From the IMG/VR virus record IMGVR_UViG_2534682256_000019: 4,809 bases of DNA. One strand, written 5' to 3'. Position numbers and translations under genes: made by a program. This document shows, one piece after another, positions 3,388 to 4,809 of the stretch (position 1 is the stretch's first letter; each line of letters begins with the position of its first letter). The notes below the pieces were generated by a model. The model did no database searches. It was not told where the DNA came from and saw nothing but the letters and a program-made list of their open reading frames with translations. Source of the DNA: a virus (lineage: Duplodnaviria > Heunggongvirae > Uroviricota > Caudoviricetes).

Positions 3388-3479
3388 ATTAATAACGATG
3401 CACACAGGGTTTAGCGCGTACACGTATTGCATTATGCCAACGCCCCGGTGCTGACACGGAAGAAACCGGACGTGATGAT

Positions 3480-3890
3480 TTAGCGTGGAAAGATTTGTGT
3501 AGTGTTCTGAATGCTCTCAGTAAATAGTAATGAATTATCAAAGGCATAGTAATATCTTTTATGTTCGTGGATATTTGTAACCCATCGGAAAACTCCTGCT
3601 TTAGCAAGATTTTCCCTGTATTGCTGAAATGTGATTTCTCTTGATTTCAACCTATCATAGGACGTTTCTATAAGATGCGTATTTCTTGAGAATTTAACAT
3701 TCACAACCTTTTTAAGTCCTTTTATTAACACAGTGTTATCGTTTTCTAACACAATGTGAATATTATCTGTGGCTAGATAGTAAATATAATGTGAGACATT
3801 GTGACGTTTTAGTTCAGAATAAAACAATTCACAGTTTAAATCTTTTCGCACTTGATCGAATATTTCTTTAAAAATGGCAACCTGAGCCAT
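3480..3890 (-). CDS. ybcV: Hypothetical protein, YbcV-like (136 aa from the ATG; the ORF stays open to a TTG at 4013 giving 177 aa)
   Basis: Long minus-strand ORF in an AT-rich segment (hand counts give 18-19 G+C per 60 nt in rows 3661-3780, against 32 per 60 in the endolysin row 2041-2100). The ATG at 3888-3890 has an SD-like GGAAGG 8 nt upstream on the minus strand; the first in-frame ATG (3930-3932) and the TTG (4011-4013) have none. Position (next to bor) and the 136-aa size match my recollection of ybcV in DLP12 and the ORF beside bor in lambda. Function unknown. Confidence 0.7.
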
Positions 3891-4175
3891 TGGTAAAACC
3901 TTCCATGTGATACGAGGGCGCGTAGTTTGCATTATCGTTTTTATCGTTTCAATCTGGTCTGACCTCTTTGTGTTTTGTTGATGATTTATGTCAAATATTA
4001 GGAATGTTTTCAATTAATAGTATTGGTTGCGTAACAAAGTGCGGTCCTGCTGGCATTCTGGAGGGAAATACAACCGACAGATGTATGTAAGGCCAACGTG
4101 CTCAAATCTTCATACAGAAAGATTTGAAGTAATATTTTAACCGCTAGATGAAGAGCAAGCGCATGGAGCGACAAA

Positions 4176-4382
4176 ATGAATAAAGAACAATCTGCTGATG
4201 ATCCCTCCGTGGATCTGATTCGTGTAAAAAATATGCTTAATAGCACCATTTCTATGAGTTACCCTGATGTTGTAATTGCATGTATAGAACATAAGGTGTC
4301 TCTGGAAGCATTCAGGGCAATTGAGGCAGCGTTGGTGAAGCACGATAATAATATGAAGGATTATTCCCTGGTGGTTGACTGA
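4176..4382 (+). CDS. ybcW: Hypothetical small protein (68 aa), YbcW-like
   Basis: ATG at 4176 with a strong SD (GGAG 4165-4168, 7-nt spacing). Mildly acidic 68-aa product. Order and size match the small ORF after the bor-adjacent gene in lambda and DLP12 as I recall them. Confidence 0.65.
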
Positions 4383-4546
4383 TCACCATAACTGCTAATC
4401 ATTCAAACTACTTAACCTGTGACAGAGCCAACACGCAGTCTGTCACTGTCAGGAAAGTGGTAAAACTGCAACTCAATTACTGCAATGCCCTCGTAATTAA
4501 GTGAATTTACAATATCGTCCTGTTCGGAGGGAAGAACGCGGGATGT

Positions 4547-4741
4547 TCATTCTTCATCACTTTTAATTGATGTATATGCTCTCTTTTCTGACGTTAGCCT
4601 CCGACGGCAGGCTTCAATGACCCAGGCTGAGAAATTTCCGGACCCTTTTTGATCAAGAGCGATGTTAATTTGTTCAATCATTTGGTTAGGAAAGCGGATG
4701 TTGCGGGTTGTTGTTCTGCGGGTTCTGTTCTTCGTTGACAT
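4547..4741 (-). CDS. ylcI: Small putative DNA-binding protein with ribbon-helix-helix-like features (64 aa), YlcI-like
   Basis: 64-aa minus-strand ORF: basic N-terminus (MSTKNRTRRTTTR), then a candidate beta-strand NIRFP and two helix-like segments (NQMIEQINIALDQKG, NFSAWVIEACRRRL), the pattern of Arc/MetJ/CopG proteins. Size and position match my recollection of ylcI in DLP12. The SD is weak. Confidence 0.6.
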   Translation of the reverse strand: MSTKNRTRRTTTRNIRFPNQMIEQINIALDQKGSGNFSAWVIEACRRRLTSEKRAYTSIKSDEE

Positions 4742-4809
4742 GAGGTTGCCCCGTATTCAGTGTCGCTGATTTGTATTGTCTGAAGTTGTTTTTACGTTAA
4801 GTTGATGCG

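Follow-up and report, generated by a model that had tools for sequence, protein, structure and literature searches.

Which sequences control the divergent genes ybcV and ybcW at the right end of a lambdoid prophage, and do the short repeats in the spacer between them serve as operators? The question was raised by a first-pass annotation of a 4,809-nucleotide stretch of viral DNA (hereafter the window, meaning the whole stretch analyzed), which described the spacer (positions 3891-4175) as a divergent control region and proposed that its direct and inverted repeats are bound by an RHH protein, the product of the neighboring ylcI-like gene. Our analysis leads us to consider it rather probable that two phage modules meet in the spacer and that it serves as a divergent promoter region of low strength, silenced by H-NS and induced under anaerobic conditions, in which the repeats are no dedicated operators.

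Identity of the locus and limits of the spacer

The window comes from the right end of a lambdoid prophage. It shares 98.7% identity with phage lambda (lambda 46962-48370), 99.1% with DLP12 of E. coli K-12 over a 1.4-kb region (99.3% for the spacer alone), and 100% with an O157 prophage; the full region is carried by ~950 E. coli genomes. The right end of lambda (bor, lambdap78, lambdap79, and the orf before cos) and the borD-ybcV-ybcW-ylcI segment of DLP12 are the same DNA as the window and show no difference of substance from it, except that lambda homology begins at position 1934 and the left part of the window (Q, rusA) is not lambda-like. Lambda coordinates are ~47494-47511 for the direct repeat, ~47664-47689 for the inverted repeat, and 47738 for the ybcW ATG; neither repeat is named in the publications consulted.

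Three genes define the surroundings of the spacer. The ybcV-like gene (lambdap78 of lambda; 3480-3890, minus strand, ATG at 3890) encodes a 136 amino acid DUF1398 protein (Pfam E = 2e-46, residues 8-126) and is annotated as ybcV in identical E. coli records. The ybcW-like gene (lambdap79; 4176-4382) lies on the plus strand, which is the late-operon strand, and encodes a 68 amino acid protein preceded by a Shine-Dalgarno sequence GGAG at 4165-4168. Convergent with it is the ylcI-like gene (4547-4741, minus strand), which encodes a DUF3950 protein of the YlcI/YnfO family (Pfam E = 5e-20); the ybcW-ylcI pair appears in a published listing as a convergent excludon. CRISPRi knock-down of lambdap79 kills lambda, even though the gene is classed as non-essential, and we read this lethality as polarity on the late transcript, a reading absent from the table of the source paper.

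The length of 285 bp given for the spacer holds if ybcV starts at ATG 3890. The first-pass annotation had also allowed for a longer, TTG-initiated ybcV ORF that would place the direct repeat inside coding sequence. This 177 amino acid form is the one annotated in lambda NC_001416-type records, but its reading frame is not preserved in homologs: all non-lambda alleles lack one base at ~3895, which destroys the frame and refutes that option. The Shine-Dalgarno sequence GGAAGG (3904-3899), 8 nt before ATG 3890, and the ATG itself are kept in all homologs. In Pfam, DUF1398 starts at residue 8 in the short protein and at residue 49 in the long form. Judged from the sequences, lambdap78 as annotated, with 177 amino acids, probably extends too far upstream.

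The spacer is a junction between two phage modules

We compared the spacer with diverged alleles (LF82, APEC, Qin, and gnsB-ybcW types) recovered with the spacer as BLAST query and YbcW as tBLASTn query; a YbcW search of viral contigs comprised 100%-identical proteins only and was used solely for SNPs in close relatives. In blastn against a Qin-type locus (L003), homology to ZF8-1/Qin-type loci stops at 3969 and restarts at 4579. The interval between these points (3970-4578, plus strand) is a 609-bp cassette carrying the ybcW module, which lambda/DLP12 have and Qin-type ynfO-ydfO loci lack. The ybcV-proximal ancestral segment (3891-3969) is what is left of a ynfO 3' end together with the ynfO-ydfO spacer, which are its equivalent in Qin-type prophages and where CAG GTC AGA CCA GAT TGA encodes the YnfO C-terminus (QVRPD and stop). 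These breakpoints show the ybcW cassette as a moron-like insertion that entered a ynfO/ylcI-type gene at its 3' end. Like phage morons, segment 3970-4578 comes and goes as a unit, occurs in varied neighborhoods (after ybcV or after gnsB), and carries ~160 bp of conserved upstream DNA; where ybcW homologs lie downstream of gnsB, without ybcV, homology runs from ~4016. It differs from morons in that the scans revealed no promoter or terminator of its own; ybcW lies on the late-operon strand and may be read through from pR'.

Across these alleles, conservation is concentrated in an FNR box, a PdhR box, the ribosome-binding sites of both genes, and the interval 4121-4140; the two flagged repeats lie in drifting segments.

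Both repeats are present and decay in relatives

The tandem repeat is exactly as first described: two head-to-tail copies of TTATCGTTT (3932-3940 and 3941-3949, plus strand), 100% identical, which read in ybcV sense as two copies of AAACGATAA with two CGATAA cores. The chance of finding each repeat was estimated with dinucleotide-preserving shuffles. Perfect, non-trivial tandem duplications of at least 9 nt arose once among 2000 spacer shuffles and in 6 of 300 whole-window shuffles. Random sequence therefore does not account for the direct repeat, but it is of the type that replication slippage yields. It is perfect only in lambda/DLP12-type alleles. The LF82 type has TTATCGTGT/TTATTGTTT and the APEC type AGATCGTTT/TTATCGTTT, each identical at 16/18 positions and with the two copies substituted at different positions; in the Qin type the segment differs at ~10/17 positions, and single SNPs occur among close relatives. 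Against an incidental origin stands the level of conservation of the segment across the three ybcV-ybcW spacer types, which is close to that of its flanks. The direct repeat may be a lineage-specific product of local duplication or conversion in the ybcV leader or promoter-proximal DNA.

The inverted repeat proved one base longer on each side than first reported: TCAAATCTT-N8-AAGATTTGA spans 4102-4127, with 9-nt arms (4102-4110 and 4119-4127) that are 100% complementary, 49-74 nt before the ybcW ATG at 4176. It is only mildly unusual against chance, as a perfect inverted repeat with 9-nt arms and a 3-20 nt loop was found in 38/2000 spacer shuffles and 76/300 window shuffles. In three diverged alleles the left arm matches at 7/9, 4/9, and 6/9 positions and the right arm at 9/9, 9/9, and 7/9, while the loop is longer by 16 or 8 nt through extra copies of an 8-nt unit, CTTTCAYN, whose copy number varies; a T4107C change disrupts the repeat in an 11-contig lineage. 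The right arm lies in the strongly conserved block GATTTGA-N-GT-W-ATATTTT-W-A (4121-4140, plus strand), which also holds a putative -10-like element, AATATT/TATATT (4131-4136). The inverted repeat would be an accident of one copy number and sequence of the slippage-prone unit adjoining this block.

In diverged spacers, the symmetry of neither repeat is preserved and the copies of the direct repeat diverge independently. Both repeats are lineage-specific and probably incidental and non-functional.

Mapped regulator sites lie outside the repeats

The spacer was already known as a regulatory region, with occupancy by FNR, H-NS, sigma70, PdhR, and ArcA in published genome-wide data. To transfer these data, the offset between K-12 and window coordinates was verified on the sequence of the ArcA site; the FNR and PdhR sites at the spacer rest on ChIP or SELEX combined with motif finding.

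The FNR/CRP-type box ATGAT-TTAT-GTCAA (3981-3994) matches TTGAT-N4-ATCAA at 8/10 positions, and the bases at 3978-3995 are identical (18/18) in three diverged ybcV-ybcW spacer types. Its motif center, K-12 578914.5 (window 3987.5), belongs to a ChIP-chip peak (Grainger et al., 2007, PMC1802558 Table 2). In a later study, the ybcV/ybcW site ATGATTTATGTCAA was a strong motif, enriched for H-NS, that gave no wild-type FNR peak, the peak being seen only in an hns/stpA mutant (Myers et al., 2013, PMC3688515). Match, conservation, and published occupancy coincide at this box and not at the flagged repeats. Sites of this kind are known as H-NS-occluded FNR sites (PMC3688515; listed among FNR targets of unknown function in PMC1802558), of which the ybcV/ybcW site is itself a listed case; the flagged repeats fall outside it. 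A second FNR site, TTAAGTTGATGCAGATCAATTAAT, lies in the ylcI/nohB divergent region and was validated by EMSA in published work; its left part occupies 4797-4809, where the site is cut by the window end (last letters TTAAGTTGATGCG). Its center is K-12 579735.5, equivalent to window 4808.5 (PMC1802558), and TTGATGCAGATCAA was bound both in wild-type datasets and in the hns/stpA mutant (PMC3688515).

A sigma70 ChIP-seq peak at K-12 578910 (window ~3983) rises from 82 to 434 reads anaerobically, ~5-fold, and ybcW mRNA is higher under the same condition (PMC3688515). An H-NS antagonist has been reported to derepress ybcV/ybcW more than 1000-fold.

PdhR, a GntR-family regulator, has a genomic-SELEX site ATCTGGTCTGACCTCTT with palindromic core GGTCTGACC at 3952-3968, centered on K-12 578887 (window 3960) and matching at 10/14 positions; in a pdhR mutant, ybcV mRNA is down 10.0-fold and ybcW mRNA 8.9-fold (PMC7660256). 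We found the GGT-N3-ACC core in place within this interval, and the box is conserved at 17/17 positions in the LF82 type and 15/17 in the APEC type. The site resembles PdhR operators of the GntR/FadR type (ATTGGT-N3-ACCAAT), was recovered by SELEX between divergent ybcV and ybcW, and lies 2 nt from the direct repeat; it fits the consensus less well than the canonical pdhR, ndh, and cyoA sites do, and the reported effect is activation, although PdhR is classically known for repression. Activation of ybcV/ybcW by PdhR is inferred from the mutant and could be indirect. In Qin-type prophages the bases of the box encode the YnfO C-terminus, and its left half-site varies there.

The ArcA site TAGTAAATATAATGTGAGACATTGTGACGTTTTAGTTCAGAA, with four direct repeats, lies inside the ybcV coding sequence (3778-3819, plus strand; K-12 578705-578746, same sequence), and an arcA mutant shows ybcW at -2.6-fold and ylcI at -2.8-fold (PMC3798270 and its supplement).

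Other candidates in or near the spacer were considered and, on inspection of the sequence, dropped. These were DnaA, Fur, LexA, CRP, and IHF sites, an ArcA site at the direct repeat (11-bp spacing is needed and 9 bp is present), terminase R sites (cosN is ~800-1000 bp away), and a Cra site of which just the left half, TGAAAC at 3951-3946, is present.

A consensus scan of the spacer for promoters and terminators found nothing, and the best PWM promoter score, 6.8, is below the median best score of shuffled sequences (7.4), so that promoter positions are unreadable from the sequence; scores below shuffle level fit activator dependence and silencing. The Cappable-seq and ROSE supplements hold no transcription start site entry for ybcV, ybcW, or nearby coordinates, and the ArcA paper states "no TSS" (PMC3798270). 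That no start was found for either gene, which leaves the placement of the repeats relative to promoters provisional, counts against calling them incidental.

Taken as a divergent control region, the spacer is real: sigma70, FNR, PdhR, and H-NS have all been placed in it, and ybcV/ybcW mRNA changes with pdhR and arcA, under anaerobic conditions, and when H-NS is antagonized. The proposal that the flagged repeats are its operators is unsupported, as the mapped or predicted sites lie elsewhere (PdhR 3952-3968, FNR 3981-3994) and the repeats decay in relatives in an uncoordinated way. We propose that host global regulators, rather than a phage RHH protein, run the spacer. In K-12 DLP12, according to the published data, H-NS covers the FNR box, at which FNR binding is detectable only once hns/stpA are removed, and sigma70-RNAP occupies the spacer in its left third, peaking at ~3983 and giving a 5-fold stronger signal under anaerobic conditions. 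PdhR selects 3952-3968 in vitro, and ArcA binds inside ybcV.

Alternative roles for the repeats

A role of the direct repeat in silencing itself is the alternative that survives best, and we regard it as unlikely. The repeat would be a high-affinity H-NS nucleation pair that seeds a filament silencing ybcV/ybcW and occluding the FNR and PdhR sites. Its two CGATAA cores are one helical turn apart, a third exact copy of TTATCGTTT lies 190 bp away inside ybcV (3736-3744), and the ybcV-sense units aACGATAAAAa and aACGATAATGc match the footprint-derived H-NS motif tCGATAAATT at 7/10 and 6/10 positions, within the range of validated H-NS sites such as fis-1 (GCGATAATTA). A G+C content of 29-40%, the H-NS enrichment, the mutant-dependent FNR binding, and the strong derepression described above all agree with a filament here. 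However, the motif has low specificity (~39/99 random 500-bp regions were positive in the motif paper's own control), the two cores are not both kept in LF82-, APEC-, or Qin-type alleles, and AT-rich prophage DNA can be silenced by H-NS without a special site. Under the reading that we prefer, of a silenced junction without dedicated operators, the direct repeat would contribute at most two CGATAA H-NS-type motifs.

That the inverted repeat is functional seems to us quite improbable. It could be an operator over a weak ybcW promoter (-35 TTCATA at 4109-4114, -10 AATATT at 4131-4136), or it could act at the RNA level, as a hairpin that alters the processing or stability of the Q-antiterminated late transcript or of the ybcW 5' UTR. 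The hairpin of the lambda allele has a predicted energy of -9.6 kcal/mol (z = -3.2), the right arm lies within the most conserved non-coding block upstream of ybcW, and at roughly this position the gnsB-ybcW type and the APEC type have short inverted repeats of other sequence, TCACTC-N9-GAGTGA and CTCAA-N4-TTGAG, respectively. Against this, left arm and loop length are unconserved without compensatory change, and the RNAalifold consensus of seven diverged ybcW leaders leaves the hairpin out and contains no supported structure, with an unfavorable covariation term (+1.6) and compensatory changes in 2/41 pairs. LF82-type leader RNA (z = +0.3) folds no better than its shuffles. The region has no promoter-like call, the terminator scan called no intrinsic terminator at 4102-4140, and a search of the whole window against Rfam (E<=1) gave no match in the spacer. 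The published sigma70 peak (~3983) is some 120-145 bp away.

Very unlikely, in our judgment, is the circuit originally proposed, in which YlcI is an RHH repressor acting on the direct repeat, the palindrome, or both to control the divergent ybcV and ybcW promoters. YlcI is small with a basic N-terminus, and its short hydrophobic NIRFP segment followed by two helices is compatible with an RHH fold; the perfect repeats and the immediately downstream ylcI share the lambda/DLP12 allele, and the tandem repeat is non-random. As in RHH operator arrays (P22 Arc/Mnt, CopG, and the ParD/omega-type tandem heptads), short repeats lie at divergent promoters near a gene for a small basic protein. Nevertheless, YlcI matches only DUF3950 and no RHH family in Pfam (E<=10), and phmmer and profile searches against PDB (E<=10) found no solved RHH structure that matches it. 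Its AF2 monomer model has low confidence (pLDDT 61), with predicted helices at 19-32 and 34-63 and a disordered N-terminus, which is RHH-compatible but not diagnostic. An autoregulating RHH protein would be expected to bind DNA upstream of its own gene, yet neither TTATCGTTT nor TCAAATCTT (<=1 mismatch) occurs in the 68 bp upstream of ylcI to the window end (4742-4809). The repeats and ylcI do not travel together either. Genes of the ylcI/ynfO type adjoin ybcW without the inverted repeat (L129; PhiR63_1) or ydfO without the direct repeat (Qin type; L003, L110-L115), the 11-contig L021 lineage keeps ylcI with both repeats broken by SNPs (T3947C and T4107C), and four contigs have the repeats with no ylcI motif within 700 bp. 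Besides the RHH fold of YlcI being only putative, the locus differs from known RHH arrays in repeats that are not conserved with the protein or copied at its own promoter and in having only two head-to-tail copies at 9-bp spacing; the two copies of the direct repeat also mutate at different positions.

We give hardly any credence to a circuit private to lambda/DLP12, in which YlcI or another lambda right-end product binds the tandem repeat and/or palindrome; if true, it would couple ybcV/ybcW expression to the FNR-controlled ylcI promoter and give the phage that has been studied best a pair of regulator and operator not described before.

Our analysis adds little new biology to a spacer whose regulators have been mapped, and its value is corrective: the repeats that look like operators differ from the elements that are conserved and mapped, the spacer is a recombination junction, and the 177 amino acid annotation of lambdap78 is probably overlong.

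Published regulator sites in the ybcV-ybcW spacer

The first-pass annotation had proposed that the spacer between ybcV and ybcW (3891-4175) is a divergent control region, with a tandem direct repeat and an inverted repeat as its operators. The first part of this proposal is borne out and was already documented, since both the region and its occupancy by PdhR, FNR, sigma70, H-NS and ArcA have been published. K-12 coordinates correspond to window coordinates plus 574927, an offset that we verified on the sequence of the ArcA site. A PdhR genomic-SELEX site, AtcTGGTctgACCtcTT, lies at 578887 (window 3952-3968), and ybcV and ybcW mRNA fall 10.0-fold and 8.9-fold, respectively, in a pdhR mutant (Anzai et al., 2020; PMC7660256). 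An FNR ChIP-chip target named 'ybcW', with the motif TGTTGATGATTTATGTCAAATATT, is centred at 578914.5 (window 3976-3999; core 3981-3994; Grainger et al., 2007; PMC1802558). ChIP-seq of sigma70 shows a peak whose centre is 578910 (window 3983), with 82 reads aerobically and 434 anaerobically, and ybcW is ~4-fold up anaerobically; the FNR motif at 3981-3994 is strong, lies in H-NS-enriched DNA without an FNR peak in the wild type, and acquires a peak in an hns/stpA mutant (Myers et al., 2013; PMC3688515). A four-repeat ArcA site lies inside ybcV (window 3778-3819), and ybcW and ylcI are reduced in an arcA mutant, the authors noting no known TSS (Park et al., 2013; PMC3798270). In addition, antagonism of H-NS by T4 MotB has been reported to raise ybcV and ybcW more than 1000-fold.

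The mapped sites differ from both repeats, and the regulators are host global factors. The PdhR box starts 2 nt past the direct repeat and the FNR box 32 nt further on, while the palindrome is 120-145 bp away from the sigma70 peak.

Genomic context and ybcV start codon

The ORF list and BLAST identify the window as the right end of a lambdoid prophage, with the gene order rusA-like, Q-like, holin, lysozyme R, Rz/Rz1, bor (minus strand), ybcV (3480-3890, minus strand; lambdap78 in lambda), ybcW (4176-4382, plus strand; lambdap79) and ylcI (4547-4741, minus strand). BLAST of window 3400-4809 gave identities of 100% with an O157:H7 prophage, 99.1% with K-12-type DLP12 and 98.7% with phage lambda 46962-48370, where the direct and inverted repeats correspond to ~47494-47511 and ~47664-47689. 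The Q-antiterminated late transcript runs on the plus strand of the window. In a CRISPRi screen, lambdap79 knock-down scored 'essential' despite its non-essential listing, and lambdap78 scored non-essential; we read the former score as late-operon polarity, a reading of our own that is not stated in the paper's table. A September 2026 bioRxiv preprint on an NADase defence domain (10.64898/2026.09.04.749371) mentions lambdap79 six times.

Just downstream of the Q-like gene, positions 1331-1410 gave a sub-threshold Rfam match to isrJ (30.4 bits; gathering score, 37), with a G+C-rich hairpin followed by a T-run at the end of this stretch (~1383-1415). This region probably represents the leader of the late promoter with its terminator, corresponding to lambda 6S RNA/tR'.

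Many contigs of ~3.5 kb in assemblies from unrelated taxa (Cohnella, Pedobacter, Flavobacterium, Kitasatospora and others; loci L086-L107 and L116-L122 of our collection) share 98-99% identity with the lambda segment, as do error-ridden ENA proteins (P0001-P0120). Both look like the 3.6-kb lambda 3'-end control DNA of nanopore sequencing, together with contamination from lambda spike-ins. Over the 1.4-kb query, 'Campylobacter phage CJLB-4' (48,361 bp) has 98.7% identity and likewise resembles lambda.

A 177 amino acid ybcV ORF initiated at TTG would place the direct repeat inside coding sequence, and phage records such as PV340558 (locus L127, 205-738) annotate a ybcV homolog of 534 nt (177 aa) from this TTG. 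Every non-lambda allele has lost 1 bp at ~3895, just 5' of ATG 3890, which breaks this long frame; the Shine-Dalgarno sequence GGAAGG (3904-3899) and ATG 3890 are conserved, and DUF1398 begins at residue 8 of the 136-aa product. The comparison of alleles thus indicates that the ybcV start is the ATG 41 codons downstream of the TTG, and that the spacer is therefore non-coding.

Mosaic origin of the spacer

In Qin-type prophages and in strain ZF8-1, ydfO, a ybcV paralog, is directly preceded by a ynfO/ylcI-type gene on the same strand. Because their homology to the window stops at 3969 and restarts at 4579, and because GGTCAGACCAGATTGA (ybcV sense, window 3965-3950) represents the final YnfO codons (..QVRPD-stop), positions 3891-3969 are a former ynfO 3' end together with the ynfO-ydfO spacer. 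The ybcW cassette of lambda and DLP12 (609 bp, 3970-4578) stands in place of 50 bp (2070-2119 of L003, a ynfO-ydfO locus) inside the 3' end of the ynfO/ylcI-type gene. It gives lambda/DLP12 YlcI (64 aa) a new C-terminus, Qin-type YnfO having 77 aa and ending in ..RKQVRPD; the orphaned YnfO codons persist at 3965-3950, overlapping the PdhR box. Homologs of ybcW are also found downstream of gnsB at loci that lack ybcV, and these match the window from ~4016. The two repeats are thus parts of different modules, the direct repeat of the ybcV-proximal piece and the palindrome of the ybcW cassette.

The ~160 bp upstream of ybcW (4016-4175) keep ~73% identity whether the upstream gene is ybcV or gnsB, with near-invariant blocks GTATTGGTTGYGTRACAA (4019-4036), ACGACAGAT(G)TATGTAAGG (4073-4092) and GATTTGANGTWATATTTT (4121-4138); none of these is accounted for by an ORF, an Rfam family or a supported RNA structure.

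The repeats across diverged alleles

Both repeats are present as described. A repeat search recovered TTATCGTTT twice, head to tail, at 3932-3949, and an inverted repeat of TCAAATCTT (4102-4110) and AAGATTTGA (4119-4127) separated by 8 nt, each arm being 1 base longer than first reported. Chance was estimated with dinucleotide-preserving shuffles (2000 of the spacer, 300 of the window). A perfect tandem duplication of at least 9 nt arose in 1/2000 spacer and 6/300 window shuffles, so rarely that the direct repeat is not a random-sequence event, though slippage makes such repeats. A perfect inverted repeat with 9-nt arms and a 3-20 nt loop arose in 38/2000 and 76/300, and the palindrome is mildly unusual, no more. 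A third exact TTATCGTTT lies inside ybcV (3736-3744), ~190 bp from the tandem pair, and the window holds four matches at up to 1 mismatch, against 1.3 expected. Neither repeat is discussed in the papers that we read.

We compared the spacer with the LF82/Tritos type (~84-90% identical), the APEC O78 type (74%), the gnsB-ybcW type (~73% from 4016 on) and Qin-type ydfO upstreams. The FNR block (3978-3995) is identical in LF82 and APEC (18/18 each), the PdhR box matches at 17/17 and 15/17 positions, and both Shine-Dalgarno/ATG regions are nearly invariant; the gnsB-ybcW type has neither box and a nearly invariant ybcW start region. Block 4121-4140 is strongly conserved in all three types.

The direct repeat matches at 16/18 positions in LF82 (TTATCGTGT / TTATTGTTT) and in APEC (AGATCGTTT / TTATCGTTT) and is absent from gnsB-ybcW. 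Substitutions in its two copies fall at different positions, close relatives carry single SNPs at yet other positions, and ~10/17 positions differ in the Qin-type segment. For the palindrome, the left arm matches at 7/9, 4/9 and 6/9 positions in LF82, APEC and gnsB-ybcW, and the right arm, which is part of block 4121-4140, at 9/9, 9/9 and 7/9. Its 'loop' is an 8-nt unit, CTTTCAYN, present once in lambda, twice in APEC-type and gnsB-type alleles and three times in LF82, so that the arms stand 8, 16 or 24 nt apart, respectively. In an 11-contig lineage, T4107C and T3947C break both repeats. Other alleles carry different short palindromes of their own, such as GGTATTG-N9-CAATACC and TCACTC-N9-GAGTGA in the gnsB type, so that repeats of this kind evidently arise and vanish in this AT-rich DNA. 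The evidence says that the flagged repeats are not conserved functional units.

At the RNA level, the lambda palindrome is foldable (-9.6 kcal/mol, z = -3.2); shuffled sequences fold at least as well as the LF82-type leader, the RNAalifold consensus lacks the hairpin and has an unfavourable covariation term, and searches for terminator-like and Rfam matches returned none in the spacer.

YlcI and the repeats

The repeats had also been linked to YlcI as a ribbon-helix-helix (RHH) regulator. DUF3950 was the sole match in a family search, and no RHH match was obtained in Pfam at E<=10 or with phmmer and a family profile against all PDB chains. The AlphaFold model, from a shallow alignment (pLDDT 61; helices 19-32 and 34-63, disordered N-terminus), would fit an RHH monomer without being diagnostic of one. 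Neither repeat motif is present upstream of ylcI, even allowing 1 mismatch. Moreover, ylcI-like genes are found beside ybcW or ydfO alleles without the repeats, a lineage with both repeats broken still has ylcI, and four contigs have the repeats with the ylcI motif absent within 700 bp. A lambda-private YlcI-operator circuit is highly improbable.

A near-perfect FNR site lies upstream of ylcI, its left part forming the last 13 bases of the window (4797-4809). This is the published, EMSA-validated site TTAAGTTGATGCAGATCAATTAAT of the ylcI/nohB divergent region, whose core TTGATGCAGATCAA is bound in wild-type datasets and in the hns/stpA mutant. As the site is centred ~67 bp upstream of the ATG of ylcI, FNR probably controls ylcI itself.

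Proposed mechanism

The sequence-specific inputs to the spacer would be FNR (3981-3994) and PdhR (3952-3968), with RNA polymerase occupancy centred on the FNR box. Starts ~41.5 bp either side of the FNR box centre (~3945 for ybcV, ~4029 for ybcW) would suit class II FNR geometry. Between the FNR box and a candidate ybcV -10 (CAGATT, 3956-3951) there are no indels in any allele compared; the APEC allele lacks 4 nt on the ybcW side. No sigma70-like site in the spacer scored above shuffled sequence.

The direct repeat would fall within the ybcV start or early-leader region, without a dedicated binding protein. Its two CGATAA cores match the H-NS motif tCGATAAATT at 7/10 and 6/10 positions, a low-specificity motif that is not conserved here, and might contribute to H-NS nucleation. 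The palindrome would be an accident of the 8-nt-unit copy number of the lambda allele beside a conserved block, and this block (4121-4140) is possibly a second, proximal promoter, with a -10 of AATATT/TATATT at 4131-4136. The CTTTCAYN tract (4105-4118; equivalents in loci L002, L124 and L125) is slippage-prone and lies where the -35 of a proximal promoter would fall.

Overall, the spacer most likely holds weak promoters that would be silenced by H-NS and more active under anaerobiosis, with FNR and PdhR as inputs.
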